Shown here: piece after piece, positions 27,557-41,536 of the stretch
Position numbering within the stretch: the first letter of the stretch is position 1
How the letters are laid out: the number at the start of each line of letters is the position of its first letter
Sequence record: PX068456.1
Source: a phage
Reading direction: 5' to 3' (one strand)
DNA length: 64,000 nucleotides
The notes under the pieces: generated by a model
Told to the model about the DNA's origin: nothing
Seen by the model: the letters and a program-made list of their open reading frames with translations, nothing else
Databases searched by the model: none
Position numbers and translations under genes: made by a program

Positions 27557-28023
27557 ATTACGCCGGATATGAACCTGTTGACATGCTCAACGGTGACGGT
27601 GTAAGATGCTCTTTGTGGGTGAGCGGTTGTAGCCACGGTTGCCGTGGCTGCTTTAACCAGAAAGCCTGGTCGTATAACTACGGACAAGAGTTCACTACTG
27701 AAACATTAGATTTTATCTTGGAAGATTTATCTCGACCTTTCATTAAAGGATTAACAGTTTTAGGTGGTGAACCTCTTGACAAAGAGAACATTGACACTGT
27801 AGAGTATGTTCTTGAGAAGGTAAGAGATTGTTTTGGAAACAAAAAAGATATTGTCTTATATACAGGATATCTTTTTGAAGAAATTCCAGAGAAAATTAAA
27901 AAACTGGTTGACATAGTGATAGATGGTAAGTATGATATGAATCAACCAACAACGAAACGTTATAGAGGTTCAGATAATCAACGAATGTGGGTTAAGAAAG
28001 ACAACATTTGGGAATCTGACTAA
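27553..28023 (+). CDS. nrdG: anaerobic ribonucleotide reductase activating protein (radical SAM), TTG start
   Basis: CSHGCRGCFN radical-SAM cysteine motif; overlaps nrdD stop. Confidence 0.75.
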   Translation: MNYAGYEPVDMLNGDGVRCSLWVSGCSHGCRGCFNQKAWSYNYGQEFTTETLDFILEDLSRPFIKGLTVLGGEPLDKENIDTVEYVLEKVRDCFGNKKDIVLYTGYLFEEIPEKIKKLVDIVIDGKYDMNQPTTKRYRGSDNQRMWVKKDNIWESD

Positions 28024-28043
28024 ATTAAATAGAGGAGAAAACT

Positions 28044-29204
28044 ATGTTTACAGTATTCGGCAATCAAATCTTCCTGCGTCAGAAGTCTGGTACAGATATT
28101 GAAGAAATTCCAGCAGGAACTTTTGGTGTAGGTGTTACTCAAAGTGGCGAGTTCTTCCTGTATCCTAAAAATGATATGGAAGTCCCTTCAGTAACATACG
28201 GTGATACTGATGATAAATCAGAACGTATTATCAAGACGTTCCTTAGCCGCAAAGGTAAAAACACAGGTGTTCTCCTTGAGGGTACGAAAGGTAGCGGTAA
28301 AACTTTGCAAGCTAAAATGTTGTCTTCTGCTCTTCGTGAAATGGGTATTCCTACTATTTCTATCGGTAGTGCTTTTAATGGTGAAGGCTTTATCAATTTT
28401 ATGTCTAAAATCACACAACCTGTGATGATTATGATTGATGAATTTGATAAACTGTATGCTGAAAAAGATGCACAAGATGGTTTGCTTACCCTGCTGGATG
28501 GTGTTGGTGGTTATGACAAGCTGTTTGTATTGACTAAAAATGATGGTTATGTATCAGAATTTTTGCGTAATCGTCCTAGCCGTATTTTCTACAGTTTTAG
28601 CTATAAGAAACTACCTAAAGCTACTATGGATGATTATCTGGCTAAAAATCTGGAGAACAAAGCCTTCTTACCAGATTTTGAAACGCTTTATAATCTCTCC
28701 GTGGATTTGAACTTTGATATTGTTCAGTCATTAGTAGAAGAACTTAACCGTTATCCTAATGACAAATTCTCTGATGCACTTGCATTAATGGGTATCAGTA
28801 TTACTGAACACCGCTATGCTGCAAAAGAAGTTAAACTTCTGAAAGTTAACGGTGTAGATCGTACAGCAGATGTTTCGTCAGACACCGATATTGACGGTAT
28901 GACAGCACAAGGTTTGTTTAGCGGTAATCGTTATGTTGTAGCTGTAGATCATAAGTCAGGAGAAGAGCATCTTCCTGAAATGGAAGGGATTGTTACCGTA
29001 GAAGATAAAGATGAAGAAGGTGACTACTACTGGGGTGTAGACCGTATCTTGCTAACGTATGATGAAAAACACATTCGTACAATGGGTGGTGACGGTTATC
29101 ACTTTATGTTCACCGATGATAAAGGTAACAACATTGAAGTTGTTATTAAAAACAAAGAACGTAAAAACTACACAGAGTATGTGTTTGGTGGTCGTTCTTA
29201 CTAA
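28044..29204 (+). CDS. AAA-family ATPase (paralogue of 12937..14064)
   Basis: Walker A GTKGSGKT, Walker B IMIDEFDK; shared N-terminal region with minus-strand paralogue. Confidence 0.65.
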   Translation: MFTVFGNQIFLRQKSGTDIEEIPAGTFGVGVTQSGEFFLYPKNDMEVPSVTYGDTDDKSERIIKTFLSRKGKNTGVLLEGTKGSGKTLQAKMLSSALREMGIPTISIGSAFNGEGFINFMSKITQPVMIMIDEFDKLYAEKDAQDGLLTLLDGVGGYDKLFVLTKNDGYVSEFLRNRPSRIFYSFSYKKLPKATMDDYLAKNLENKAFLPDFETLYNLSVDLNFDIVQSLVEELNRYPNDKFSDALALMGISITEHRYAAKEVKLLKVNGVDRTADVSSDTDIDGMTAQGLFSGNRYVVAVDHKSGEEHLPEMEGIVTVEDKDEEGDYYWGVDRILLTYDEKHIRTMGGDGYHFMFTDDKGNNIEVVIKNKERKNYTEYVFGGRSY

Positions 29205-29209
29205 GTGAT

Positions 29210-29238
29210 AAAAGGAGGCGAAAGCCTCCTTTATTTAT
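29210..29238 (+). terminator. intrinsic terminator AAAAGGAGGCgaaaGCCTCCTTTATTTAT
   Basis: GC stem plus T-run. Confidence 0.55.
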
Positions 29239-29250
29239 ATGGAGGGTATT

Positions 29251-29442
29251 ATGGATCATTATTTTGTTTTTAAAGATAAAGTTGATACCGCAGGTGGTCA
29301 CGTTGCTAAAAATGATCGTGACATTAAAGAAGTATTAGGAGATTTGATTAACATTTTAGAACAAAAAGAGTTGCTTTTAGATAAGGATATTGCTAGACTT
29401 CTGGGTGTGGGGCTAAGTGACATACAAAGATTACCATTCTAA
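29251..29442 (+). CDS. hypothetical small protein (63 aa)
   Basis: ORF track frame; start at ATG 29251 after GGAGGG. Confidence 0.4.
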   Translation: MDHYFVFKDKVDTAGGHVAKNDRDIKEVLGDLINILEQKELLLDKDIARLLGVGLSDIQRLPF

Positions 29443-29453
29443 AGGGGAAGAAA

Positions 29454-29609
29454 ATGCTTACAGATGATGAATATAAAGCTATCCAGGAAAAACTAACGGA
29501 GCTTGAAATTCTTGCTGTCAATATTAAAGATCAATCACATGCTGGAAAGTTACTACATCAAGAGATCAATAAAATTAAGCAGATGATATTCTTTTGGACG
29601 GAGGATTAA
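29454..29609 (+). CDS. hypothetical small protein (51 aa)
   Basis: hand-translated; AAAGGGGAAGAAA RBS. Confidence 0.35.
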   Translation: MLTDDEYKAIQEKLTELEILAVNIKDQSHAGKLLHQEINKIKQMIFFWTED

Positions 29610-29611
29610 AA

Positions 29612-30268
29612 ATGACTGTTAAGCATATTTCTTTTGATGTATGGAATACTCTTATTACTGCTAATCCTTTGTATGCAGAAGAACGCAACAAGGTTATTGC
29701 CGAGTATGCCTCTTGTTCTGAGGCAGAAGCAGCTACCGTATATAAAGAGGTAAAAACTCTCCTGGATTTAAAAGCAGAAAAAGGCATTTGTGGAACGTCT
29801 AGGAATGCTTGGGAAACACTTTCTGCTCGTTTGAACATTGATCTTGATAAAGTAGATGGGTTAAAAAGAGACTGTTTAGCAATGTTTATAAAACATCCTC
29901 CAATATTGAACCCTGAGCTTTGCAAGAAGTTGGAAGAGCTAAGTTCAACCTATTCTTTGAGTATTAAGAGCAATACTAATTTTGTACCAGGTAGTTTCTT
30001 AGCTGTATATTCTGGCTTAACAAAATTACCATTTGATTTTATGCATTTTTCTGATGAGTTTTGCTTGTGTAAACCAGATCCTAGGTTTTTTAAACTCTCT
30101 TTTGATGAAATGGTAACGTTTGATCTCGCACCAGAGGAGATTTTACACGTTGGAGATAGTTTGATTTATGATGGAAAAGCTGTTGACATAGGGATGAAGT
30201 TCTGTCATATTACTAATCCAGAAGACTTGTTGGCTAAACTTAAAAAAGAGGAACTTATTAATGCGTAA
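29612..30268 (+). CDS. HAD-superfamily-like hydrolase (218 aa)
   Basis: N-terminal ISFDVWNTLI (motif I-like, second Asp replaced) and C-terminal HVGDSLIYDG (motif IV-like). Confidence 0.45.
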   Translation: MTVKHISFDVWNTLITANPLYAEERNKVIAEYASCSEAEAATVYKEVKTLLDLKAEKGICGTSRNAWETLSARLNIDLDKVDGLKRDCLAMFIKHPPILNPELCKKLEELSSTYSLSIKSNTNFVPGSFLAVYSGLTKLPFDFMHFSDEFCLCKPDPRFFKLSFDEMVTFDLAPEEILHVGDSLIYDGKAVDIGMKFCHITNPEDLLAKLKKEELINA

Positions 30269-31118
30269 TCAAATTCAACATTTTGCTAATACTTTTACTA
30301 ACCTGAAGGAAGCAAAATTTAACATTGCAGATTATTCCAAACTAAAGTTTGGTAGTAACCAGGCAGCAAAAAGAATGGGACGCATTCTGGCTGAAAGTTT
30401 CTTTTCTAAATATGAAGAACGACTAGTAAATGAAAGTTTTGTTGTTATTCCATCTCCATACAACTATGTGAAAAATGCAGCTACAGTGTTATCTGAACAT
30501 TTTGTAGATCACCTCAACTACCTAATCTCTATCAAAGGAGGTAAAGCAGTAGAGTGGGATATCGTTCATCGTAAAGTGAGTTATATCAATGATTATGGAT
30601 TTCTTAGCAAAGAAGATCGTAAGGCTTTGATCGATGGTGACACTTTCTCTATCAATCGTGATTTCTGGGGTAATAAAACTCTGATTTTCATTGATGATGT
30701 TAATATTACAGGAACACACGAAGAAAAACTTATTGAAATTTTAGACAAAGAAGGTGTTGAAAACGATACGTTTTTTCTGTACTTTGCAAAGTATGAAGGT
30801 ACAGAAGCCAACACCGAAGCTGCACTTAACTTCAACTATATCAATAACCTGGCAGCTTTTATTAAAATGATTAAGCAAGAAACTGATGCTAAATGTTTGG
30901 TTCGTCCTATTAAGTATCTAATGAGTCAAAGCGAAGTTGATTTTAAAATTGCACTTTCACAACTTCCTTTGTATTATGTAGAACAACTGTTCTTTGGTTG
31001 CCTTGCAGAAGGTTACAATAATATTGAAAAATACAAAGAGAACTTTGATTTCCTGCGTCAATTTTTTGAAAGCAACATTATCAACAAATCTAATGTTAAA
31101 GGGGATTATTATGTCTAA
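30261..31118 (+). CDS. type I phosphoribosyltransferase (PRTase) family protein (285 aa)
   Basis: PRPP-binding signature LIFIDDVNITGTHEE. Confidence 0.55.
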   Translation: MRNQIQHFANTFTNLKEAKFNIADYSKLKFGSNQAAKRMGRILAESFFSKYEERLVNESFVVIPSPYNYVKNAATVLSEHFVDHLNYLISIKGGKAVEWDIVHRKVSYINDYGFLSKEDRKALIDGDTFSINRDFWGNKTLIFIDDVNITGTHEEKLIEILDKEGVENDTFFLYFAKYEGTEANTEAALNFNYINNLAAFIKMIKQETDAKCLVRPIKYLMSQSEVDFKIALSQLPLYYVEQLFFGCLAEGYNNIEKYKENFDFLRQFFESNIINKSNVKGDYYV

Positions 31119-31827
31119 TAAAGTGACGACTTTCGGAGATCCTATCACCAATATTACAGAAAAAGATTTTGGGCGTGTAGCAACAGATAAAGATGGTGTC
31201 TTAAGAATTCGTGTACAAGGCATTACAGCACAGGATGAATATGCTGTGTATGTTTCAGGTCTTAATTATATTGATGATCGCATCACACAAAACTTTGCAC
31301 TGATCGGTGGTGTAGAGAAAATGTACTGGGAAGATGAAATTGTAACAAGTTATCCAGCAGGTATCATTGAGGTATACGGTGATCTTTTAGCAGCAGCCGA
31401 GAGAGGCGATATCGACGCTATAGCACACTGCTGTAACTGTTTTTGCACTATGGGTAGTGGTATTGCACCAAAAATTAAAAGCAAGTGGCCTGGTGCGTTT
31501 AAAGCAGATTGTGCCACTAAACGTGGTGATTATAAAAAATTAGGTACGTTTACTAAGTATACAGAAAACAATTTGACAATTTATAATTTATATGGACAAT
31601 ATGGTTATAGTCGTCGTGAGGAAGGTAAGCGTGACCTGAATTATGAAGCTATCTACAATGCGTTAGATAGTATGGGAGACGATGTTGTATCTTCAGGCGG
31701 TAAAATTGTAGGTTTACCAATGCTTGGTTGTGGTTTGGCTGGAGGTTCTTGGAATATTGTAAAACTTATGATCGAAGAAACTCTAGTAAACAAAGGTTTA
31801 AATGTAATTGTTTACAAACTGAAATAA
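31111..31827 (+). CDS. macro-domain protein (ADP-ribose binding/processing) with ~100 aa N-terminal extension
   Basis: GDIDAIAHCCN and GLPMLGCGLAGGSW resemble macro-domain GDIT..DAIVNAAN and P.I.tGvyG motifs. Confidence 0.45.
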   Translation: MSNKVTTFGDPITNITEKDFGRVATDKDGVLRIRVQGITAQDEYAVYVSGLNYIDDRITQNFALIGGVEKMYWEDEIVTSYPAGIIEVYGDLLAAAERGDIDAIAHCCNCFCTMGSGIAPKIKSKWPGAFKADCATKRGDYKKLGTFTKYTENNLTIYNLYGQYGYSRREEGKRDLNYEAIYNALDSMGDDVVSSGGKIVGLPMLGCGLAGGSWNIVKLMIEETLVNKGLNVIVYKLK

Positions 31828-31836
31828 GGAGAAAGT

Positions 31837-32043
31837 ATGGCAGGTGTTTTAGCAGTATTAGGTTGTTTTATTGTTGTATTCTTGATTGTGTTAATCCCTA
31901 GTTGGCTACTGCTTTTAGCATACAACTATATGATTGACATTATCGGTTTAGACTGGCATCATGTTCCTGTAACGTTTTGGAGTGTAGTCTGTGTGACGTT
32001 CATTCTTGCGGTACTTCGTGGTATCTTTCAATCTAACAAATAA
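31837..32043 (+). CDS. small membrane protein (68 aa)
   Basis: ORF track; two hydrophobic helices; RBS AAGGAGAAAGT. Confidence 0.45.
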   Translation: MAGVLAVLGCFIVVFLIVLIPSWLLLLAYNYMIDIIGLDWHHVPVTFWSVVCVTFILAVLRGIFQSNK

Positions 32044-32057
32044 GAGAGGATTTTTAT

Positions 32058-32306
32058 ATGCGTAAAGTAAATGTTGAAGTGCTTGAAAAATTTATAAACA
32101 CTCGTGATTGTACTGTTGGTAAGGTTTATGAGGCTATTCTCCTTGAAGATGGAGATATTGTTCCTGCCCCGTATCACGCCTTTAATGGCCAGGTTAGCAA
32201 AGTGGAAGGTGGTCTTGCTGTTTGCTTTATTGATGATGTAGGTGATGCTGTAGCTTTCCCTATCATTAACAAAGAAGATAAACTTAAAATTACAGAACTG
32301 AACTAG
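32058..32306 (+). CDS. hypothetical protein (82 aa)
   Basis: ORF track. Confidence 0.45.
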   Translation: MRKVNVEVLEKFINTRDCTVGKVYEAILLEDGDIVPAPYHAFNGQVSKVEGGLAVCFIDDVGDAVAFPIINKEDKLKITELN

Positions 32307-32346
32307 TTGACTTTCTTTAAAAACAGTTTATAGTATACGACATAGA

Positions 32347-32365
32347 GCGGAGGATTGTCCTCCGC
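32347..32365 (+). promoter_or_regulatory. stem-loop GCGGAGGAttgTCCTCCGC upstream of TerC-like gene
   Basis: perfect 8-bp inverted repeat, no clear U-tract. Confidence 0.35.
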
Positions 32366-32383
32366 ATTAAAGAGGAGAAAAGA

Positions 32384-33361
32384 ATGCAACTGGGTTTCCC
32401 AATTATTGATGTGGTTGTTTTAGTGGGTATTTTAGTCTTGTCGATTTGTATTGATTTCTTTGGACACAGGGAAAACAAAGAAATTTCATTTAAATCTGCA
32501 ATTGGCTGGTCAATTTTCTGGATTGGGGTATCATTAGCCTACTATGGTTTTGTATACTTCCAACACGGTGCTGATTTTGCGAGCTTGTTCTTGAGTGGGT
32601 ATGTGTTGGAGAAATCTCTTTCTGTAGATAACTTAGTAGTATTTGTGGCAGTATTCGCAAGTTTTGGTATTAAAAGTACACACTTGCAACACAAGATTCT
32701 ACTTTGGGGTATTGCAGGTGCGATTGTCTTCCGAGGTGTGTTTGTAGCAGTAGGTACTTACTTGTTGAGTTTGGGCTGGTATGTTAATATCTTCTTCGGT
32801 GCGGTCATCCTTTTCTGTGCAGCTAAAATGGTATTCGCTGGAGATAATGACGCAGAAGTTGATTACTCTAAACACTGGGCTACTCGCATTGTTCGTAAGC
32901 TGTTCCCTGTATCTGATCAGATGGATGGTGAGAAGTTCTTCACAATCAAAAATGGTGTTCGTGTAGCAACTCCTGCATTGGTTTGTGTGTTTGTAATGGA
33001 AATGGTTGACGTAATCTTTGCAGTAGACTCTGTTCCAGCAGTAATTGCAGTGACACAAGAACCTCTGCTTGTATTTTCTTCAATGCTGTGTGCAATTTTA
33101 GGTCTACGTGCTCTGTTCTTTGTCCTTAGTGTTGCACTGAAATATTTGGTTCATCTGGAGAAAGCAGTTATCGTAGTCCTGGTATTTGTGGGTGTAAAAC
33201 TGATGTATCACCCGTTTGCAGAAACTCTGCACGCAAAAATGAGTTTCCTGCCAGCACACATTGATCCGACGATCAGTATGTATATTGTGTTAGGTACTCT
33301 TGGGCTGGGTGTTATTGCAAGTTTAATCTTCCCTGAAAAAGAAGACCAGACTGTTGCTTAA
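32384..33361 (+). CDS. TerC-family integral membrane protein
   Basis: hallmark EKSLSVDN motif, multiple TM helices, size 325 aa. Confidence 0.7.
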   Translation: MQLGFPIIDVVVLVGILVLSICIDFFGHRENKEISFKSAIGWSIFWIGVSLAYYGFVYFQHGADFASLFLSGYVLEKSLSVDNLVVFVAVFASFGIKSTHLQHKILLWGIAGAIVFRGVFVAVGTYLLSLGWYVNIFFGAVILFCAAKMVFAGDNDAEVDYSKHWATRIVRKLFPVSDQMDGEKFFTIKNGVRVATPALVCVFVMEMVDVIFAVDSVPAVIAVTQEPLLVFSSMLCAILGLRALFFVLSVALKYLVHLEKAVIVVLVFVGVKLMYHPFAETLHAKMSFLPAHIDPTISMYIVLGTLGLGVIASLIFPEKEDQTVA

Positions 33362-33366
33362 TTCAT

Positions 33367-33385
33367 TAAGCCCCTTCGGGGGCTT
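33367..33385 (+). terminator. hairpin AAGCCCCttcgGGGGCTTT
   Basis: GC stem with short T-run after TerC gene. Confidence 0.4.
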
Positions 33386-33400
33386 TGTTGAGGTGATCTG

Positions 33401-33607
33401 ATGGTGGTTTTACGTGTTCTTTGGATTCTGTTTGAAAATATTTGTTTTGCTTTAGGGCTATTTTGTTTGATTTTTATATTGACAACATATATTGATAACC
33501 ATACAATTACTATCAACAGGAACGGAGAACAGATGTATTGTTTCTCTAGAGATTTTAAAAATTGTGTTGAGACTTTAAATGAGAGGGTTACAAATGAAAA
33601 ACATTAA
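33401..33607 (+). CDS. small hydrophobic protein (68 aa)
   Basis: ORF track; RBS GAGGTGA; overlaps next gene start. Confidence 0.35.
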   Translation: MVVLRVLWILFENICFALGLFCLIFILTTYIDNHTITINRNGEQMYCFSRDFKNCVETLNERVTNEKH

Positions 33608-34184
33608 ATCTTTTATTGTTGCAGTTGTTTTAGGCAGTGCATTGCTGGTAGGTTGTGATGATTCTGAAAATGTACAAAACCAACGTTACCAACAAACACC
33701 AAATCAGATGGTAGATGAACAATATGTAAATCAACCTGCACCTCAAGTTGTTCAAGCAGCACCTGCACAACCTTCAACAGTTGTTGTGCAAGGAGGCGGC
33801 AGTGGTTCTTCTGGTGTAGGTGAGTTTGCTACAGGTATGCTTCTTGGTCATATGTTGAGTGGTAATAGTGGCGGTGGTGGTTATAGAGATGGTGGTAGCA
33901 ATACAACAGTTATTAATAACAACGCTGCTCCTACAACTAACAGTAAAGCATATACAACACAAAAGCATAGTTTTTATGATAAACAAGGGAATACATATAC
34001 AACCACTAAACAAAACACAATTAAGCAGCAAAGTGTACAAACGTATTCACGCCCATCAACAACAAAAGTGAATAGTAATTACTCTGCTCGTAAGTCTTAC
34101 TCAAGCCCTATTAGCTCTTATAGTAAGTCTTCGAAAAGTTATTCTTCGTCGAAACGTAGTTTTAGTAGCTCACGTCGTCGTTAA
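33594..34184 (+). CDS. putative lipoprotein with Gly/Ser-rich low-complexity tail
   Basis: signal peptide with lipobox LLVGC; Ser-Tyr-Lys repeats at C-terminus. Confidence 0.5.
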   Translation: MKNIKSFIVAVVLGSALLVGCDDSENVQNQRYQQTPNQMVDEQYVNQPAPQVVQAAPAQPSTVVVQGGGSGSSGVGEFATGMLLGHMLSGNSGGGGYRDGGSNTTVINNNAAPTTNSKAYTTQKHSFYDKQGNTYTTTKQNTIKQQSVQTYSRPSTTKVNSNYSARKSYSSPISSYSKSSKSYSSSKRSFSSSRRR

Positions 34185-34219
34185 TAATTTAATACAGATT
34201 AAATAAGAAGGAGAAACAG

Positions 34220-35071
34220 ATGAAACTAGAAGTTGGTAAAGTGTATCGCCTGGAAGGTTGGATCTTTAATCAAGAAATTCTTGAGAAGAATAAGGATGGT
34301 TTTGAGTTTGTTGGTACTACCAAAGAAAGTATGCACGATGACGAATACTGTAAATTCGTTGGTAAAAATACAGGTCAAGAACAATTTTGCTTTAAAAGCG
34401 CAATCGGTGATTATGCTTCTGTAATGCCAACGCCAGAAAAAACTTCGAAACAATATACTGTCTTTGGTGTAAAACTTGAAGAGCTTGTAGAACACCCACG
34501 TTTTGAAGAGTTTAAGGTTGCTGCAATGTGCAAGCATTCTGAAATTAAGATACATAATTTGTTTGATTTAGAAGATCGGTTTGATATCTTTATGTATGAT
34601 CGCAGGGGAAAGCATTTTGATGCAACGACTTCAAAATTTGCTGCAACAGAGGATATTAAAATCCTTGATGTTGATACCTTTCTTGAGAGTGTATCGTTTG
34701 TATTCATTCCTAAATGCAAAAAACGTAGTGATCATAAACGTGTGAAAGGAACTCCTCGTAAAAAACGTACTGTAAACAAAGCAACTTTGCACTTCACTTC
34801 TGGTGATAAATATACTCTCAAAGGGTTTGAAAGTGTTTTGTATGATGCTGGAACGGGTAATATCAAGTTTATCATTAAGGCAACCTACAAAGGTACGGTA
34901 TTGCACGAAGAGGCTGTTACACTACCTGTATTCGATATCTCTCGTGTTGAGGTACGGGGTGTTAAAGAGTCCTTCGATCTGGATTTCTTAACCACTAATG
35001 CTACTGGTTATGTTAATCTGGAAGCAGATGGAGCATTTATTACTACAAATTATTTAGATATGTTTGTTTAA
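34220..35071 (+). CDS. hypothetical protein (283 aa)
   Basis: ORF track; RBS AAGAAGGAGAAACAG. Confidence 0.5.
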   Translation: MKLEVGKVYRLEGWIFNQEILEKNKDGFEFVGTTKESMHDDEYCKFVGKNTGQEQFCFKSAIGDYASVMPTPEKTSKQYTVFGVKLEELVEHPRFEEFKVAAMCKHSEIKIHNLFDLEDRFDIFMYDRRGKHFDATTSKFAATEDIKILDVDTFLESVSFVFIPKCKKRSDHKRVKGTPRKKRTVNKATLHFTSGDKYTLKGFESVLYDAGTGNIKFIIKATYKGTVLHEEAVTLPVFDISRVEVRGVKESFDLDFLTTNATGYVNLEADGAFITTNYLDMFV

Positions 35072-35139
35072 TACTTAATTTGTGTTATGATGGTGGTACA
35101 GAGGTATCACCATCTACTAAAGAATATGGAGGAAATTGA

Positions 35140-36243
35140 ATGTCCAGTCCTTTTATCAGTGCCGTAAAAAGCAAACCGTCTGAAATGAGTGTATTCACGG
35201 CAACAACAGAAAAAAGTAAGTCTTTGTTTGCTCCAAGTGCTATGGATGCAAGCCCTGTATATGCCCCTGCTGTTGCACGACCTGTACAAATGCTGCCTCC
35301 AATGTCTCGTGAAGAGATTGAACAAGTTGGTGCTGATGCAGGACTTACTCTTCGTAACCTTAATGCTGAAGTGCTTAAACACCAGCGTTCATCTCAGGGG
35401 GATGAAATGAGTGAACGTTTAACTGCACTTATTAAGCAAGCAAAGCAACTTGATCCTAATTCTATTAAACAATCTAAAGGCTTAGGTAAACTAGTTAAGA
35501 AAGTATTAGGTATGAAAGAAGATTTGTTTGGTGAATTTGACACCATCAATAATCGTATTGAAGGTTTGGTAAAGACACTCCAAACAGACTTGAAAAAAGA
35601 AGAAGATTCTTTACGATATCTGCAACGTTTAGAAGAGGCTATTGCAAAATATGCTCTTAGCTTAAACAGGGATATAGAGCTTCTAACAGCTACTTATGAA
35701 AAAGAAGAAGTTCGCCTTAATACACTACCTGAAAATGAAGTAGAAGAGCGTCAACGTACTCGTGATACTATGGATCTGCTTGAAATTCGTATTGCAGACC
35801 TGAAAGCCTTGCGTTTACTGTGTGTTCAGATGGGGCCACGTGTACAAAGTATGCAGAAAGTATCTGCAAGTTTGATGCGATCAGCCCGTAATATTGTGAA
35901 TAATGTTATTCCTGCTTACTCTGCAAACTTTTCTATGTATATTGAAAGTCTACGCCAGAAGAAAGCAGCCGATACACAGAACAATGTACTGAATGAATTT
36001 AATGCGGCTATTGCAATGGGTAGTGATCTGGCTGCACAAAACCAAATTGAAGCTACGCAACTTGCTAATCGTCAAGTATTGGATATTGAAACATTACGTC
36101 GCGATCAAGAAAACTTAGTTAAAATGTTGGAAGAAACTAACCGAATCAACACTGAAGCCCGTGCTGCTCGTATTGATTACATTCAAGAAGTGCAATCTCT
36201 TGAAGATGGTATGATTCAAACTGTTAAACGTGGTCTACTTTAA
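35140..36243 (+). CDS. TelA/KlaA-like toxic-anion-resistance family protein (coiled-coil)
   Basis: size 367 aa, coiled-coil composition and context next to TerC/TerD/vWA; family call by resemblance only. Confidence 0.4.
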   Translation: MSSPFISAVKSKPSEMSVFTATTEKSKSLFAPSAMDASPVYAPAVARPVQMLPPMSREEIEQVGADAGLTLRNLNAEVLKHQRSSQGDEMSERLTALIKQAKQLDPNSIKQSKGLGKLVKKVLGMKEDLFGEFDTINNRIEGLVKTLQTDLKKEEDSLRYLQRLEEAIAKYALSLNRDIELLTATYEKEEVRLNTLPENEVEERQRTRDTMDLLEIRIADLKALRLLCVQMGPRVQSMQKVSASLMRSARNIVNNVIPAYSANFSMYIESLRQKKAADTQNNVLNEFNAAIAMGSDLAAQNQIEATQLANRQVLDIETLRRDQENLVKMLEETNRINTEARAARIDYIQEVQSLEDGMIQTVKRGLL

Positions 36244-36256
36244 GGAGAAATATATT

Positions 36257-36463
36257 ATGAATATTAAAATTTACAAACTGTCTGGTTCTATGATCGCTGT
36301 CCAGTATGACAATGAAGATCGTTATGTTCTCCTCCAGGATGCCTGGTTAGATGATCCTAATGTATTTACTGTCCTGCGAGAACTACGTTCTGTCTATACC
36401 TATTCTTCTAAAGATGGTTTTGATAGTTCAACGATGGAATTGGTAAAAGAGGAGAATGTGTAA
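36257..36463 (+). CDS. hypothetical small protein (68 aa)
   Basis: ORF track frame; ATG 36257 after AAGGAGAAAT. Confidence 0.45.
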   Translation: MNIKIYKLSGSMIAVQYDNEDRYVLLQDAWLDDPNVFTVLRELRSVYTYSSKDGFDSSTMELVKEENV

Positions 36464-36663
36464 TGAATAAAGATATTCACTTAACTCGTGAAGAATTACA
36501 AACCATTATGGAAGATGCTTTCATTGATGGTTGGAAACAAGGTCAAGAGTCAGATTGGTATGATGCCGAAGACTTTTTGTATTATCATATGACTGCACCT
36601 GTAGACGAGCAAACACATTCTGAAACAACTTTGGCTTTAATTGATCTTAAGGCTGGTGTATAA
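36463..36663 (+). CDS. hypothetical small acidic protein (66 aa)
   Basis: ORF track; coupled starts. Confidence 0.45.
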   Translation: MNKDIHLTREELQTIMEDAFIDGWKQGQESDWYDAEDFLYYHMTAPVDEQTHSETTLALIDLKAGV

Positions 36664-37226
36664 TGGGATGTTTTAGTTTCTTGTGCAAAGAGTCTGGTAA
36701 TGCTGCTCTTTCTACCTCTTTCGATGGTTCTCCTTGCTACCTATTTCTTTTGAAAGGTGGTAAAGTTGTTGAAGAGATGTATGGCAATTATGATAGCTAT
36801 GGTAGTGTTTTCTCTAATGAAGAAGATAAACATGGCAATCGTAAAAGATTTAAGTGGTCTATGCCTTGGGAAGAAGTTTGTAATTTGATGTTCTCTTCCG
36901 ATCTTGGAGATGGTATCGCTATGGTATTAGAAGAGCACTTTACAGGTGAGATCCCAACAGAAAGATCTGAAGAAGACCCTAACCAGGGTTGGGGTGATGG
37001 AGAAGAAGATCCAGATTGCTTCTTCAGCACTGAAAATAATAAATTTAAACGTGTTGACAATCCTTACCACAAAGTGCATAATACTTGCATTGAGACAGAA
37101 GAAGACTCAAAGCTAGAAATTGAAGATGATTTAGTTGTAACTATCTCTTTAAACGAGTTGCAAAAGATCACCAGAGAGGCTTTCTATTTAGGCTGGAGGG
37201 CAGGTAAAGGAGAAGACAGTGCTTAA
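36663..37226 (+). CDS. hypothetical protein (187 aa)
   Basis: ORF track. Confidence 0.5.
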   Translation: MGCFSFLCKESGNAALSTSFDGSPCYLFLLKGGKVVEEMYGNYDSYGSVFSNEEDKHGNRKRFKWSMPWEEVCNLMFSSDLGDGIAMVLEEHFTGEIPTERSEEDPNQGWGDGEEDPDCFFSTENNKFKRVDNPYHKVHNTCIETEEDSKLEIEDDLVVTISLNELQKITREAFYLGWRAGKGEDSA

Positions 37227-37488
37227 ATTTAATATCAAAGACGATAAATCAGATGAACCTAAATGTTTTGGAGAACTTGACGCAGGTGATACATTCGTAT
37301 ATTATGTTGCGTATCAAGATTCTGGTTTAGATACGTTCAGAAACTTAGTGTTTATTAAAGTTAATACAAACCAAGCAATGTGTCTGAACGGTTCACAAAG
37401 AGGTCAACTTAGCTGTATTTCATATGATACAGAAATGGTAGAAGTGGATTTAGAAGTTACTAACATTACACTCAGAAAGGAGAAATAA
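37219..37488 (+). CDS. hypothetical protein (89 aa), GTG start
   Basis: ORF track; AAAGGAGAAGACA RBS. Confidence 0.45.
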   Translation: MLKFNIKDDKSDEPKCFGELDAGDTFVYYVAYQDSGLDTFRNLVFIKVNTNQAMCLNGSQRGQLSCISYDTEMVEVDLEVTNITLRKEK

Positions 37489-37489
37489 T

Positions 37490-38284
37490 ATGTCCAATAA
37501 AATCAGTCTTAAAAAACGTCAAGAAACTCTTACTGTATCTCTGCGTAAGAAAAAGATTAACGATGTTGTTCTTCGTGTCGGTAGCGCCTTAGATATTTCG
37601 GGTAGTATGTGTGAGCTGTATCGTGATGGCACTGTTAGTGATTTTGTAGGTAAACTGCTGCCGTTTGGTATGAAGTTTGATGACAATGCACAGATTGACA
37701 TGTGGGCTTTCAATAGTTCTTCTTTTGAACTGCCTCCTGCAACGGCTGATGTGTATGATGATTATGTCGGCTCTTGCATGTCTAATGTTTGCATCAATGG
37801 TGGTACTGCTTATGCTCCAGTAATGCAGGAGATCTATGATACATACTTCGGTAGTGTACCTATGAAAAATATTACACGCGAAGTCGTTGAGTATGAAGAA
37901 GTCCCAGCTAAGGGTTTCCTTGCTAAACTAACTGGTAAAAAAGAACTTGTAGAAGTAACACGTACTGTTGTAGAACAGGTTGTAGATACTGATGCACAAG
38001 TTGATCGTACTCCTGCAATGATTTTCTTCCAAACTGACGGGGAAAACATGGATACTTCAGCAGTACGTAGCTTACTGAACAAACACCGCAATACGCCTGT
38101 TTACTGGTTTATGGTTGGTGTAGGTAATGCAAACTTTAAATTCCTGAAAGACTTGGCAAAAGAGTACGATAATGTTGATTTTATCGGTATTGCAGATTTG
38201 TCCTTGTCTGATGAAGAACTTTACGATAAATTGTTATCTGAAGAGTTTGGTGAGTGGGTTAAAAAATTCGGAGCAAAAGCGTAA
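37490..38284 (+). CDS. von Willebrand factor A (vWA) domain protein, TerY-like
   Basis: MIDAS motif LDISGSM plus GGTAYAP; adjacent to TerD. Confidence 0.6.
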   Translation: MSNKISLKKRQETLTVSLRKKKINDVVLRVGSALDISGSMCELYRDGTVSDFVGKLLPFGMKFDDNAQIDMWAFNSSSFELPPATADVYDDYVGSCMSNVCINGGTAYAPVMQEIYDTYFGSVPMKNITREVVEYEEVPAKGFLAKLTGKKELVEVTRTVVEQVVDTDAQVDRTPAMIFFQTDGENMDTSAVRSLLNKHRNTPVYWFMVGVGNANFKFLKDLAKEYDNVDFIGIADLSLSDEELYDKLLSEEFGEWVKKFGAKA

Positions 38285-38293
38285 AAAAAACGC

Positions 38294-38322
38294 TTGACTT
38301 TGTAGAAAAGATTAGTAAAATA
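38294..38322 (+). promoter_or_regulatory. sigma70-like promoter TTGACT-17-TAAAAT upstream of TerD gene
   Basis: hexamers read directly. Confidence 0.45.
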
Positions 38323-38358
38323 GACAACGTAAATTAACAACAAAGGAGATAATAAATT

Positions 38359-38955
38359 ATGACTCAGAAAATTTCCCTGAAAAAAGGTTCTAGCGAAAAA
38401 GTTTCTCTGAAAAAGATCGCACCAGCACTGAAACGCATTCGTCTGGAATTCTCTTGGAAATCTAACGAAAAACTGGATCTGGATGTTAGTGCTCTGATTT
38501 GCCGACACAATGCATCTGGTCTGCCGGAACTGTTGTCTCCTCGTCACCTGGTGTGCTACGCACAGAAATTTGATCCTGAACGTTCTACTTTTGCAGGTGA
38601 AGATGTTCGTGATGGTGTAGGACAGATGGAGCAGATTGATGTTACACTGGATAATATCTCTGCTGAAGCACAGGAAATTGCATTCGTAATTACTATTGAT
38701 GACGAAACGGGTAAGAAACGCCTTGGTCACGCTACCGAAGGTTTCCTTAAAATCTTCGATGATGAACGTAATGTTGAACTGCTGGACTTTGACTTCTTGG
38801 CTCCAGAACTTGCAGGTAACACCATTTGCCACGTTGCCTCCCTGGTGCGAGAAGATAGCGAATGGAAACTGAAAGCATATGGTGTAGGTAAAGCTGGGCT
38901 TGACATTTACGATGTAGTTAAAGCGTTTGGCGCTGGCGAAGATTGGTTCGAGTAA
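38359..38955 (+). CDS. TerD-family stress protein
   Basis: N-terminal ISLKKG..VSLKK, DLDVSA, FAGEDVRDG, FVITI and C-terminal GEW-type signature match TerD architecture. Confidence 0.65.
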   Translation: MTQKISLKKGSSEKVSLKKIAPALKRIRLEFSWKSNEKLDLDVSALICRHNASGLPELLSPRHLVCYAQKFDPERSTFAGEDVRDGVGQMEQIDVTLDNISAEAQEIAFVITIDDETGKKRLGHATEGFLKIFDDERNVELLDFDFLAPELAGNTICHVASLVREDSEWKLKAYGVGKAGLDIYDVVKAFGAGEDWFE

Positions 38956-38975
38956 TACATCAAGTAATAAATCAT

Positions 38976-38991
38976 AGCGCCCTTCGGGGCG
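38976..38991 (+). terminator. hairpin GCGCCCttcgGGGCGC
   Basis: GC stem after TerD gene. Confidence 0.4.
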
Positions 38992-39019
38992 CATATTTGA
39001 AATAAAAGAGGAGAAAACA

Positions 39020-39622
39020 ATGAGTATTACTTTAGAAGGTCAAAAACTTATTCGTAGCGGCAATTTTCTTGTAGATATTGACAACAATGAAGATTATGCT
39101 TTAGAAGTTAGTGATGTGCTGTTTGATGCTTTGCAGTCTGGTTTCAATTTTGAAGTTTATGAAGTAATCCGTGGAACTAAACTCAGAGAAACCCTTGGAT
39201 CATCTAGTGATGTTTATTCGGCAATCTGGCAATATTTCGGGTTAATGGAGGGTAAGACATATCTTACTGATAGTTATTCTGAAGATGTTGTTTATCTTGA
39301 TATGGAAGAGTTTCGTCGTCTGTTCAAAAGTGAAGAAAATGAAGAAGAGGGTGAACTTTTTGAAGGAATTACTCTCGAAGGTAATGTTGAAATTGTGTAT
39401 AAAGCAGGAAAAACATTCCACTTACGCGAGAACGGTAAAGCAAAAGTTGATTTTGTAAACAAGACAGTGACAACTGAACATAATTATCTTAAAGATGGTC
39501 AACCAGCTTTTGAACGTGTAAAAATTAAATTTAAAGTGTTGTCTGCACTAGTTACGGATCAAGAACGTATTGATTTTGTAGAAGATGGTGTAGTAACTCA
39601 TACAAAGGTTTACAATATCTAA
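39020..39622 (+). CDS. hypothetical protein (200 aa)
   Basis: ORF track; RBS AAAGAGGAGAAAAC. Confidence 0.5.
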   Translation: MSITLEGQKLIRSGNFLVDIDNNEDYALEVSDVLFDALQSGFNFEVYEVIRGTKLRETLGSSSDVYSAIWQYFGLMEGKTYLTDSYSEDVVYLDMEEFRRLFKSEENEEEGELFEGITLEGNVEIVYKAGKTFHLRENGKAKVDFVNKTVTTEHNYLKDGQPAFERVKIKFKVLSALVTDQERIDFVEDGVVTHTKVYNI

Positions 39623-39714
39623 CAGGGTGTAAGAGGGGGATTATCCCCCTCCACTTGCAAAATAGCCTCTTCTGTGTTACAATAAAAGTTCGTTTAACAA
39701 AATAGGAGGCAAGT

Positions 39715-40224
39715 TTGTCAATAAAAACCTTTGTCGCAATTGCGTTACTATCCTTAACTGCTTTTACATTTACACCTGTTGTGGCGCAAGCCGAAGCTGC
39801 AAACGTAAAAACTGCTAAAGTAGTTCACAAGTGTACAAAGCGTGATAGTAAAGAAAATCTATTAGCTTGTGCAATCTATGCAGAAAGTCGTAATCAAGGA
39901 AAGCGCGGTATGTCTGCTGTTGGTAATGTAGTATTGAATAGGGCGAGAGATTCATATTTCCCTGATACTATAAAAGAAGTTTTGTTTCAAAAAGGACAAT
40001 TCTCTTACACGAAGACATTCAACGTTATGGAACACGATAAGTGGAAAGACGCTAAAGCTATAGCAGAACGTCTACTTTATCTCGATAACCATTTTCCAGA
40101 ATTACGAATTGCATTAGATATTACAAAAGGAGCACTATACTTTAAAAAATCTACAATAAGAGCACACTGGGAAAAAGATATGGTTCTAGTGTACCGCTAC
40201 AAAGAACATCAATTCTATCGCTAA
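39715..40224 (+). CDS. SleB-like cell-wall hydrolase with signal peptide (TTG start)
   Basis: CAIYAESRNQG...VGNVVLNRARDSYFPDTIKEVLFQKGQF resembles Hydrolase_2/SleB signature. Confidence 0.45.
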   Translation: MSIKTFVAIALLSLTAFTFTPVVAQAEAANVKTAKVVHKCTKRDSKENLLACAIYAESRNQGKRGMSAVGNVVLNRARDSYFPDTIKEVLFQKGQFSYTKTFNVMEHDKWKDAKAIAERLLYLDNHFPELRIALDITKGALYFKKSTIRAHWEKDMVLVYRYKEHQFYR

Positions 40225-40234
40225 GGAGATATAG

Positions 40235-40513
40235 ATGAAAGATGGCGTTATCGTTGCAAGTTATCTTGTTATTGGTCTTACAGAAGAGGATGTACATTAC
40301 ATTAGGAAACATTTAGAACAGTTTGCAATGATGTTCATCGAAGACGAAGACAATGTGGATGTTTATTCAATTGAAATGATCAATGATAACGTCTATCCTT
40401 GTATAGCTTTACGAGTCGATGAAGATGTTTGGGAACGTTTTTCACGTAGTCACGATAATGTTGAATGTTCTATGGTTATGTCACAAAACAACATACTGGG
40501 AGTGTTACACTGA
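40235..40513 (+). CDS. hypothetical protein (92 aa)
   Basis: ORF track; RBS TAAGGAGATATAG. Confidence 0.45.
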   Translation: MKDGVIVASYLVIGLTEEDVHYIRKHLEQFAMMFIEDEDNVDVYSIEMINDNVYPCIALRVDEDVWERFSRSHDNVECSMVMSQNNILGVLH

Positions 40514-40743
40514 TGGCTGATGTTATTGAAGTTAACTTTAAAACAAAAAAGAAAGTTGATAAGTATACAATCTTAAAAAATATTTGCGTTGTGTGCTTCA
40601 ATTCTGTAATATATGACTCACGTAAGGGCGAAAATGAAAATGAACCTTACATCCAGATTTCTAAAGGTAAAGGGCAGTGTATCTGCAAAAACTGCGCTGT
40701 AGCAATTAAGGAGGTTGTAGATGAAAACCATTGGGATCAATGA
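40513..40743 (+). CDS. small zinc-ribbon protein (76 aa)
   Basis: CVVCF...CICKNC cysteine pairs; ORF track frame. Confidence 0.4.
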   Translation: MADVIEVNFKTKKKVDKYTILKNICVVCFNSVIYDSRKGENENEPYIQISKGKGQCICKNCAVAIKEVVDENHWDQ

Positions 40744-40915
40744 TACTGGTGAAGTTGTAAAATCTTGGGATGATCTTAGTGGTATCCCTACAGATAAACT
40801 GATTAAACTGCGTGATGTTTGTCGTGATCATCTTAACGAAACATATAAAGAGTATATGGAAGCACGAGATCACAGTTTAGCTATCCAAATGGAACTCGCA
40901 AAACGTAATCAATAG
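40721..40915 (+). CDS. hypothetical small protein (64 aa)
   Basis: ORF track; AAGGAGG RBS. Confidence 0.4.
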   Translation: MKTIGINDTGEVVKSWDDLSGIPTDKLIKLRDVCRDHLNETYKEYMEARDHSLAIQMELAKRNQ

Positions 40916-40972
40916 GTAAAACCATTTGGACTTTTTAGTCTAAAAATGCTAAAGTAATAATACGGAGGGAGT

Positions 40973-41536
40973 ATGATATTTCACATAACTCCCTATCTTT
41001 CTGGAGATATTGGAAAAGGTATCAATGACACAATAAGTGTCTTACCAGAAGATAGTTGGATTTGCCTAAGAGACATTGATACAATGTTTCTTCTTCCAGA
41101 ACAACCTGCTTGGTTGGAATCAATAGTCCGTTCAAATCCTGATTTTGATGTTCTTGGTGCATCTTGTAATAGATTGGGATCAACATATCAATTATTTAAT
41201 AATGAAAGAAGTGAAGATCCAAATATATTACACCACATTGAGATTGCAAAAAGAGCACATCTAGAATGGGGAAACTCAGTAGAGGAAGTACCTACAGATG
41301 CTATCTTAGCAGGATTCTTTCTTCTCTTTCGTAAGAGTCTGTGGAATGAAATCCCTTTTGAGGAAAGATCAATACAGTTTGATATAATTTTCTCTAAAGC
41401 ATTACACGCTAACAATAAAAGGCTAGGTTTACTACGTGGGTTATATTTATTTCACACATACCGTTTAGGTAATGATGATCCTAGAAAAGCTGTTTCACAC
41501 CTTTTACATTGTCAAGACATGAATAAAATTATTTAA
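40973..41536 (+). CDS. putative glycosyltransferase-like protein (DxD-type, GT-A-like)
   Basis: LRDIDTMF DxD-like motif; context next to three other glycosyltransferases. Confidence 0.35.
   Translation: MIFHITPYLSGDIGKGINDTISVLPEDSWICLRDIDTMFLLPEQPAWLESIVRSNPDFDVLGASCNRLGSTYQLFNNERSEDPNILHHIEIAKRAHLEWGNSVEEVPTDAILAGFFLLFRKSLWNEIPFEERSIQFDIIFSKALHANNKRLGLLRGLYLFHTYRLGNDDPRKAVSHLLHCQDMNKII

Follow-up and report, generated by a model that had tools for sequence, protein, structure and literature searches.

Positions 29612 to 38955 of the 64-kb stretch of phage DNA analyzed here (sequence record PX068456.1; hereafter, the window) encode a HAD-superfamily hydrolase, a phosphoribosyltransferase (PRTase) of the PRTase_3 family, a macrodomain protein, and proteins of the TerC, TelA, vWA and TerD families, which an initial annotation, made from the sequence without database searches, had drawn together as a Ter-like module inside a replication-gene cluster. 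All seven domain calls were reproduced by profile searches against Pfam, NCBIfam, PHROG and PDB, the whole block lies on the + strand with each named open reading frame (ORF) in its place, and the neighborhood is indeed one of replication genes, with nrdD and nrdG (anaerobic ribonucleotide reductase) and an AAA+ ATPase gene on its 5' side and a SleB-like cell-wall hydrolase, four glycosyltransferases, a primase/helicase and a DNA polymerase on its 3' side. The source lineage is Justusliebigvirus, phi92-like myophages of the subfamily Stephanstirmvirinae, with phi92 itself a close relative; the phage is of a strictly lytic type, and the roughly 49 kb examined contain no annotated lysogeny function. 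Among deposited phage genomes, 122 records match positions 29594-38955 by megablast, eight of which, including Escherichia phages W22, EC.P2, ECGD1 and KMB37, are at least 99% identical across that full interval. Read at the level of sequence, these parts make up a phage-borne minimal Ter/TelA module of two linked sub-units, the first a translationally coupled HAD-PRTase_3 pair and the second comprising TerC, a single TerD, a TerF-type vWA protein and TelA, interspersed with several small membrane proteins and a putative lipoprotein.

The HAD protein scores slightly below the Pfam gathering cut-off for PF00702 (25.8 against 26.4 bits) and is matched by PDB 2om6 over its full length (2.8e-9), and also by PHROG 14393 'hydrolase' (2e-119) and HAD-IA models of NCBIfam. 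Its motif I reads FDVWNTL, a string found also in 2om6, and has Trp, not the customary Asp, two residues after the nucleophile; this position is aromatic (W or Y) in all 22 aligned family members and in the uncharacterized 2om6 (F-D-x-[W/Y]-x-T), a departure from the phosphatase motif I, DxDx(T/V), in which the second Asp is the general acid/base. Motifs II (SNTNF), III (CKP; (S/C)KP in the family) and IV (VGDSLIYD; HVGDxxxxD in the family) are intact and kept in the 22 homologues, and motif IV conserves the Mg2+-binding GDxxxD. The protein is clearly an enzyme, and putatively a phosphatase. Its partner scores 143.5 bits against PF15610 (PRTase_3; cut-off 28.7), and in an AlphaFold2 model (predicted local distance difference test, pLDDT, 92) the N-terminal 175-200 residues match type I PRTases, with HGXPRT (2e-6), ComF (2e-5) and PyrR as fold matches in Foldseek. 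The phosphoribosyl pyrophosphate (PRPP) loop, LIFIDDVNITGTHE, is intact, as judged by the invariant residues of a 52-sequence alignment; the fold search returned no match for the C-terminal helical domain (about residues 197-279), and a sequence search of PDB returned none for PRTase_3. The GenBank label 'orotate phosphoribosyltransferase' is unsupported, the best structural neighbors, all at 19% identity or less, being 6-oxopurine PRTases, ComF and PyrR.

The HAD stop and the PRTase start overlap by 8 nt, and a second 8-nt overlap joins the PRTase gene to the macrodomain gene; at these junctions the downstream ATG lies 5 nt before the preceding TAA stop, an arrangement that suggests translational coupling of three enzymes, one of them probably with an unrelated role. 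We compared the region with 44 further loci that contain a relative of the PRTase, searching their six-frame ORFs with the proteins of the window; these loci include 21 IMG/VR contigs, contigs from protein collections, annotated phages and one plasmid, and 15 of the 44 came from a scan of 100,044 species genomes. The HAD gene stands immediately 5' of PRTase_3 in 42 of the 44, and the pair is the tightest unit of the block.

Within the second sub-unit, TerC matches PF03741 (1e-38) and scores 322.8 bits against the Alx/TerC model TIGR03718 (cut-off 246.4), and the EKSLSVDN motif named by the initial annotation was found in it, as was the metal-ion-dependent adhesion site (MIDAS) in the vWA protein. 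TerC is 46% identical to plasmid TerC (E 1e-100) and 36% identical to Alx of E. coli, for which residues E86, D92, E213, D216 and D222 are required for Mn2+ export (PMC10197570). The invariant residues E76, D82, E206, D209 and D215 of the phage protein align with these five, and because all five acidic residues are kept, its cation translocation path is likely intact. Across E. coli genomes the sole DNA similarity of the phage gene is to terC, over about 190 bp at about 70% identity, and we therefore reject a recent capture of the gene from the host. TelA scores 118.3 bits against PF05816 (cut-off 30) over profile positions 13-330 of 332 and is 78.5% identical to its counterpart in phage phAPEC8; its AlphaFold2 model, from a 22-sequence alignment, is helical and of low confidence (pLDDT 57). 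A sequence search of PDB found nothing for either TelA or the vWA protein.

The vWA protein had been described as TerY-like, and here the annotation needs correction: the protein is of the TerF C-terminal type. It matches PF10138 (vWA-TerF-like), with the MIDAS residues D-I-S-G-S, GGT and TDG conserved in alignment, and aligns to residues 192-404 of the 413-aa plasmid TerF (25% identity, E 2e-18); it is without TerF's N-terminal TerD domain and carries a subfamily-specific insert of about 25 aa. It fits no PADLOC TerY model, which sets it apart from the TerY-P defense system (TerY vWA, PP2C and Ser/Thr kinase). TerD has solved structures among its relatives (2kxt, 8e-15; 3ibz, about 1e-14). 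At the position of the canonical calcium-binding loop of K. pneumoniae TerD, which we take to be GDNxTGxGDGDDE, that is, GDN(R/L)TG(E/A)GDGDDE, the phage protein reads GEDVRDGVGQMEQ, with three acidic positions changed to V, Q and M. This change is common to all TerDs of the Stephanstirmvirinae, whereas other phage TerDs keep the canonical loop.

Every Stephanstirmvirinae locus has TerD, vWA, TelA or TerC within 10 kb of the PRTase gene, and so, in gene orders that differ, do about nine divergent contigs from uncultivated phages (PRTase identity 34-51%). Because the Ter families cluster in shuffled order across divergent contigs, we see in this functional linkage rather than inherited synteny, and the co-occurrence of the block's families is not chance. 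By identity band, 132 records hold a PRTase of the Stephanstirmvirinae type and 132 a TerD of that type, and phages of Rhizobium, Brevundimonas, Caulobacter and Xanthomonas with the PRTase have TerD elsewhere in the genome; the reverse fails, many Pseudomonas, Proteus, Bacillus and Streptomyces phages having TerD without the PRTase. In bacteria the PRTase subfamily is rare, the 15 loci from the species-genome scan being 12 from Rhizobiaceae, one phage-like contig and two Bacteroidota assemblies, and in both of the latter TerD or TerC lies within 8 kb of the HAD-PRTase_3 pair. On plasmids and chromosomes of Rhizobiaceae (loci L006 and L033-L044, from Rhizobium, Sinorhizobium and Ensifer) the pair is an isolated two-gene unit with no Ter gene within 10 kb, and because Rhizobium phages carry the same pair, exchange between phage and host replicons is suggested.

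Comparison of the window with phAPEC8 gave proportions of synonymous differences (pS) of 0.54-0.73, near saturation, and of non-synonymous differences (pN) of 0.12-0.37; pN for TelA (0.137) and TerD (0.119) indicates constraint similar to that on NrdD (0.132). All genes of the block are maintained by strong purifying selection in a lytic phage.

The macrodomain gene, which the initial annotation had counted as a member of the Ter set, appears to belong elsewhere. Residues 85-238 form a macrodomain of the DarG/TARG1/SCO6735 class, with PDB matches to SCO6735, BT1257 and TARG1 at about 4e-15 and matches to the DarG models of PADLOC (1e-13) and NCBIfam (5e-13); compared directly with Tk.4 (AdfM) of phage T4, which is of the same class, as is DarG, the protein is 30% identical (E 1e-17). 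Homologues of the domain were found in about 2,970 phage records, the T-even gene tk.4 among them, and because only 70 of these cover at least 80% of the protein, its N-terminal region is apparently confined to close relatives. That region, of about 85 residues (31111-31365), has no family match; it distinguishes the window protein from Tk.4/AdfM, the counterparts in phAPEC8 and T4 consisting of a bare domain of 155-157 aa. The gene adjoins the PRTase gene in Stephanstirmvirinae only, and the other PRTase loci are without a macrodomain gene, save for one weak match 7 kb away in locus L013. It overlaps the PRTase stop by 8 nt and has its own ribosome-binding site, and we read the overlap as pointing to co-expression, not to shared function. 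SCO6735, the best match among solved relatives, is reported to cleave thymidine-linked ADP-ribose on DNA in vitro (PMC9411070), and T4 Tk.4, since renamed AdfM, protects T4 from DarTG2 (2025 preprint). We conclude that the gene is probably a separate anti-DarT2 counter-defense gene, not a Ter component.

Table 1. Features of the block and its immediate flanks, with positions in the window.
Feature	Position	Strand	Evidence or remark
Terminator-like hairpin AAAGGAGGC-GAAA-GCCTCCTTT with T-rich tail	29211..29232	+	3' of AAA+ ATPase gene
HAD-superfamily hydrolase, subfamily IA-like	29612..30268	+	PDB 2om6, NCBIfam HAD-IA, PHROG 14393
PRTase_3 (ComF-like type I phosphoribosyltransferase)	30261..31118	+	PF15610 1e-41; AlphaFold2 and Foldseek
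Macrodomain protein	31111..31827	+	PF01661 2e-7; DarG models; T4 Tk.4 homologue
Small hydrophobic protein, 68 aa, probably two membrane helices	31837..32043	+	Homologues in L007, L011, L012, L014 (Stephanstirmvirinae)
Sigma-70-like promoter and stem-loop in 5' untranslated region before TerC	32307..32365	+	Kept across four lineages
TerC-family integral membrane protein, putative divalent-cation exporter	32384..33361	+	PF03741, TIGR03718
Small protein, 68 aa, N-terminal membrane helix	33401..33607	+	Weak DUF6693 match; kept in Stephanstirmvirinae
Putative inner-membrane lipoprotein	33579..34184	+	Lipobox LVGC; PHROG 21570 (function unknown); kept in subfamily
283-aa protein without assigned function, TerC-TelA gap	34220..35071	+	PHROG 27504; weakly conserved across Stephanstirmvirinae
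TelA/KlaA/YceH-family all-helical coiled-coil protein	35140..36243	+	PF05816 5e-34; PHROG 5890 'tellurite resistance'
Four small or unassigned ORFs (77, 66, 187 and 89 aa), TelA-vWA gap	36230..37488	+	ORF list and homologue search
vWA protein, TerF C-terminal type	37490..38284	+	PF10138 1e-38
Sigma-70-like promoter TTGACT-16 nt-TAAAAT before TerD	38294..38321	+	Consensus match only
TerD-family beta-sandwich protein	38359..38955	+	PF02342 5e-28; PDB 2kxt, 3ibz
GC-rich palindromic hairpin GCGCCC-TTCG-GGGCGC, directly 3' of TerD	38977..38992	+	Possible 3' boundary of module

Several smaller genes are interleaved with the recognizable families (Table 1). The putative lipoprotein, encoded in the TerC-TelA gap near the genes of the two small membrane proteins, has Asp at +2 after its lipobox, the residue that in E. 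coli specifies retention in the inner membrane, and ends in a long low-complexity tail rich in Ser, Tyr and Lys. The 283-aa ORF of the same gap has no Pfam, NCBIfam or credible PADLOC match, and we dismissed as chance its PADLOC matches to Cas12g (E about 0.003-0.006, 14 bits). The 187-aa gene of the TelA-vWA gap can be regarded as accessory because it is absent from a close relative, L009.

In the gap before TerC, a sigma-70-like promoter with the hexamers TTGACT and TATAGT spaced by 16 nt (32307-32334) is followed in the 5' untranslated region by the stem-loop GCGGAGGA-TTG-TCCTCCGC (32347-32365). Hexamers and hairpin are kept in four divergent lineages, with compensatory changes in five of the seven stem pairs among the four sequences, and in phAPEC8 a 'host dependent promoter' is annotated at the same position. 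The layout of the leader as a whole (32307-32383), promoter, GC stem-loop and ribosome-binding site, recurs in L007 (12552-12631), L011, L012 and L014, the sequence of the stem differing among lineages and its pairing kept, and in L012 a similar promoter and hairpin unit precedes TerD; the element may be a general 5' element of early transcripts in this phage group, or it may serve TerC-specific control. An Rfam scan of 28000-41000 returned nothing with a meaningful score, and a yybP-ykoY Mn2+ riboswitch before TerC was likewise not found. Farther upstream, the terminator-like hairpin behind the AAA+ ATPase gene has an equivalent at the same place in L011 and L012 and is likely the 5' boundary of the transcription unit that holds the HAD, PRTase and macrodomain genes. 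We treat the conserved intergenic promoter sites as leads only.

The surroundings of the block vary among its relatives. Between nrdG and the HAD gene, Justusliebigvirus has a gene for a 386-aa AAA+ ATPase (28044-29204; PF00004, 1e-6), labeled 'ATPase or Zn metalloprotease' in KMB37, and phAPEC8 has at this place a different gene, for a 201-aa 'putative hydrolase'. On the other side, the SleB-like cell-wall hydrolase (39715-40224; PF07486, 7e-20) is separated from the module by one 200-aa gene without assigned function; it is annotated as endolysin in phAPEC8 and has a homologue near Ter genes in the divergent contig L017. Upstream of the region, the BASEL phage JohannJBalmer (L001, 1-1828) carries an intein within a UvrD/Rep helicase, whereas in KMB37 the helicase is annotated as uninterrupted, with an HNH endonuclease nearby. 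In Klebsiella phage 05F01 (L008, 19977-22203), the HAD-PRTase pair is separated from nrdD by a 426-aa gene labeled 'ADP-ribosylation' and a radical SAM gene, with the macrodomain gene 3 kb upstream of HAD; this gathering of genes related to ADP-ribose around the PRTase could be significant or could be fortuitous. Four records deposited as 'Campylobacter phage' A150, A145, C3 and A110a (MG065639, MG065645, MG065656 and MG065689) are 98.4% identical to the full block, and their Campylobacter jejuni host label looks doubtful, the source being perhaps a contaminating coliphage, or else a phage of unexpectedly wide host range.

How far the block resembles bacterial Ter systems was judged against a plasmid ter locus, retrieved through the DNA similarity of phage terC to E. 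coli, where terC is found in 1,010 of 5,426 complete genomes. This plasmid locus comprises terZABCDE, one gene for a TerF-like vWA protein and one for a HAD protein, and terX/Y genes accompanied by PP2C, together with a cluster of ATP-grasp, PRTase-domain, StiP, HpcH and DUF4236 genes. When its proteins were searched by phmmer against all ORFs of at least 40 aa in the window (E <= 1), only TerC (2e-85), the TerD family (3e-18) and TerF (6e-24) found matches; TerB, TerA, TerY and TerW found none, nor did the ATP-grasp, HpcH, StiP, DUF4236 and PRTase-domain proteins, TerY-C or PP2C, and Pfam gave no TerB match in the 20 ORFs scanned. The HAD and PRTase proteins of the plasmid island have no detectable similarity to the phage HAD and PRTase_3 proteins (E 12 and 0.17). 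The enterobacterial ter locus (terZABCDEF, terXYW and the five-gene cluster, as in IncHI2 R478 and in K. pneumoniae and E. coli) and the phage block therefore share TerC, the TerD family and the vWA half of TerF; both have a PRTase and a HAD protein, yet these are not orthologous, the phage has one TerD paralogue against about six (TerZ, A, D, E, F and X), and TelA is present in the phage block and not in the enterobacterial locus. The claim that the block mirrors bacterial Ter thus holds for the homology of these proteins and for the parallel pairing of PRTase with HAD, and beyond that for component classes only, TerB, TerA, TerY, TerW, ATP-grasp, HpcH and StiP being absent.

Anantharaman, Iyer and Aravind are said to have given, in 2012, the founding description of the Ter-associated biosynthetic module. 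As later summarized (PMC11994780), the 2012 model makes PRTase and HAD the invariable core of this module, which TerB almost always accompanies and which TerB links to TerC and TerD; in its lack of TerB the phage block genuinely departs from this. The block corresponds to the 'two-gene' PRTase and HAD version, genomically linked to TerD, TerC or TelA, and is without the second PRTase, the ATP-grasp ligase and the TIM-barrel lyase of the 'five-gene' version. Closest to it in composition among bacteria are the ter/yce clusters of Bacillus, where terD, terC, PRTase and HAD genes and yceH/TelA stand together (PMC11994780); these differ in that TerD is present as three paralogues, YceG is encoded, and a lyase and StiP are often found as well; where vWA has been described in them, it is always joined to a TerD domain as the C-terminal part of TerF, unlike the vWA-only protein of the phage.

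The module is already known, having been annotated and discussed for this same phage lineage, and the block adds no new kind of system. Record OR525700 (phage KMB37, 99.0% identical) labels all seven genes, as HAD hydrolase, phosphoribosyltransferase, macro domain protein, TerC, toxic anion resistance protein, 'vWA found in TerF C-terminus' and TerD family, and other records carry partial versions of these labels. Three gene products of phi92, gp172, gp173 and gp178, were listed in 2015 as TerD, TerD and tellurite resistance (PMC4690881). Four tellurite-resistance genes were noted in 2018 in Klebsiella phage ZCKP1 (PMC6141743), a near relative with a TerD 80.8% identical to that of the window, with the same functional idea that Iyer et al. 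later set out; the paper on Klebsiella phage phiKp34 names terC, terF-vWA, terD and telA and suggests an antiviral role (PMC8386662). Iyer et al. (2021; PMC7824862) described Ter systems in virulent phages, in which PRTase and HAD produce a signal that is a nucleoside or nucleotide, TerD and TerB bind ligands, and TelA and TerF-vWA lie beneath the membrane that holds TerC. With these reports preceding it, the suggestion that such a system was new to lytic phages does not stand. Pseudomonas phage PhiPsa374 is a further published case, in which the authors judged partial ter sets unlikely to give tellurium resistance. Between our block and the published phage modules (those of Acinetobacter phage ME3 and the Caulobacter jumbo phages in Iyer et al. 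2021, and those of ZCKP1, phiKp34 and PhiPsa374), the component list, the setting in virulent tailed phages and the inferred superinfection exclusion are the same, and nothing essential differs. What the present analysis adds is detail: the obligate pairing of HAD with PRTase_3, the aromatic residue two positions after the HAD nucleophile, the degenerate TerD loop of Stephanstirmvirinae and the separate identity of the macrodomain gene.

From the parts list, conservation and linkage described above, we infer the remainder of a mechanism in which the block would act as an envelope and cation module, possibly an early one, that excludes rival phages and colicins, a reading to which we give a little less than an even chance. 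Host RNA polymerase would transcribe the module, which is probable because one sigma-70-like promoter stands before TerC and another before TerD. TerC, with metal-binding TerD and vWA proteins and the coiled-coil TelA beneath the membrane, would alter the flux of divalent cations as well as the condition of the envelope and inner membrane, and the small membrane proteins and the lipoprotein encoded among the Ter genes might join this assembly. The infected cell could thereby acquire the phenotypes that bacterial terZ, terC and terD confer, inhibiting incoming phages and resisting colicins, and its envelope stress could be buffered until lysis; in R478, phage inhibition and colicin resistance were weakened or lost when terZ, terC or terD was disrupted by insertion, and K. 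pneumoniae deleted for terC resists phage less well and is more readily harmed by Zn and Mn (PMC12054061). From PRPP, the HAD and PRTase_3 enzymes would produce a small ribosylated compound, similar to a nucleoside, that has this complex as its partner or its target, and the AdfM/DarG-like macrodomain product would remove ADP-ribose from DNA as a separate counter-defense. Superinfection exclusion has already been proposed for phage Ter systems (PMC7824862; PMC6141743). A bolder form, in which a diffusible compound from HAD and PRTase_3, cation export by TerC and an assembly of TerD, vWA and TelA together close the cell to rivals as a self-sufficient minimal Ter, we hold to be somewhat unlikely.

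A number of observations weigh against the exclusion reading. TerB is absent from the whole window, the calcium-binding loop of TerD is degenerate in Stephanstirmvirinae, and the HAD protein is without the general-acid Asp two residues after the nucleophile, which leaves phosphatase activity not assured. PADLOC defense models match no Ter-type protein of the block, and full-text searches of the literature library used turned up no experiment on any phage Ter gene. No Ter gene lies near the HAD-PRTase_3 pair in the 12 Rhizobiaceae genomes or in roughly half of the divergent phage loci, and a gap of 9 kb parts the pair from the TerC-TerD block in Klebsiella phage 05F01. Finally, early timing is a supposition because promoter-like sites are no commoner across the region than in shuffled sequence.

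The module might instead serve auxiliary metal homeostasis, TerC exporting Mn2+, Zn2+ or Ca2+ from the cytoplasm of the infected cell or supplying metal to envelope proteins of phage or host, with TerD, vWA and TelA as metal-binding regulators and rival phages uninvolved. Membership of TerC in the Alx/TerC subfamily, with its five Mn2+-export residues, fits this well, as do the Zn and Mn resistance conferred by K. pneumoniae TerC, the divalent cations bound by TerD-family proteins and vWA MIDAS sites, and the position of the block beside genes for a metal-dependent anaerobic ribonucleotide reductase and a secreted SleB-like hydrolase. We nevertheless think it unlikely, since it does not account for the PRTase-HAD pair and TelA traveling with TerC and TerD in many phages, it too must contend with the degenerate TerD loop, and the same bacterial genes give phage-inhibition and colicin phenotypes. 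Metal homeostasis and exclusion are also compatible, in that altered cation flux could be the means of exclusion.

The isolated occurrences of the pair raise a different explanation, that HAD-PRTase_3 is an independent unit of nucleotide metabolism, which might make a modified nucleoside or nucleotide for salvage, for DNA or RNA modification or as an antimetabolite, and that it merely sits beside TerC-TerD, so that the block would hold two unrelated functions. Besides the Rhizobiaceae plasmids and chromosomes on which the pair stands alone, and the half or so of divergent phage loci with no Ter gene within 10 kb, this explanation draws on 05F01, where the ADP-ribosylation gene, the radical SAM gene and nrdD/G split the pair from the Ter block, on the constant position of the pair among nucleotide-metabolism genes in Stephanstirmvirinae, and on the terminator upstream of the pair and the separate promoter before TerC. 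Yet every PRTase-bearing phage group in our collection also has TerD in its genome, the two Bacteroidota assemblies place TerD or TerC within 8 kb, PRTase with HAD is the constant core of bacterial Ter biosynthetic modules (PMC11994780), and in salvage a phosphatase that undid the PRTase product would be unhelpful; we consider the explanation unlikely.

Counter-defense is another candidate, and to us an improbable one: the proteins would protect the membrane from depolarizing or permeabilizing effectors of abortive infection, or would act as decoys or dominant-negative partners of host Ter proteins. TerB-domain systems (Bunzi, Shango) and the ter operon do act in membrane-based phage defense, hosts with Ter are common, as the frequency of terC in complete E. 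coli genomes given above attests, and the neighboring macrodomain gene is itself a counter-defense homologue. Against this, phages of the lineage plate on E. coli K-12, which has no ter operon, and yet their genes are strongly constrained, and the module is found in phages of very different hosts. That the block is a resistance 'moron', conferring resistance to tellurite or other xenobiotics on the host during infection or pseudolysogeny, is scarcely credible, despite the name and historical phenotype of the gene families and the mention of xenobiotic resistance during pseudolysogeny as a side possibility (Iyer et al., 2021; PMC7824862), as the phage is of strictly lytic type with no annotated lysogeny function, TerB, TerA and TerZ are lacking, and the PhiPsa374 authors doubt tellurium resistance from partial sets.

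Ter systems are widespread in bacteria and tied to pathogen fitness and phage resistance, and their mechanism has gone unexplained for decades. The lineage described here keeps a stripped-down set of six recognizable Ter genes under strong purifying selection, and as it includes BASEL-collection phages that grow on E. coli K-12, it offers a tractable model for Ter function. Ordinary as a discovery, the block has its value as a convenient model with a corrected parts list; should the module prove to be a self-sufficient minimal Ter that works without TerB, it would be the simplest genetic system in which to ask what the Ter proteins do and whether a metabolite is involved.

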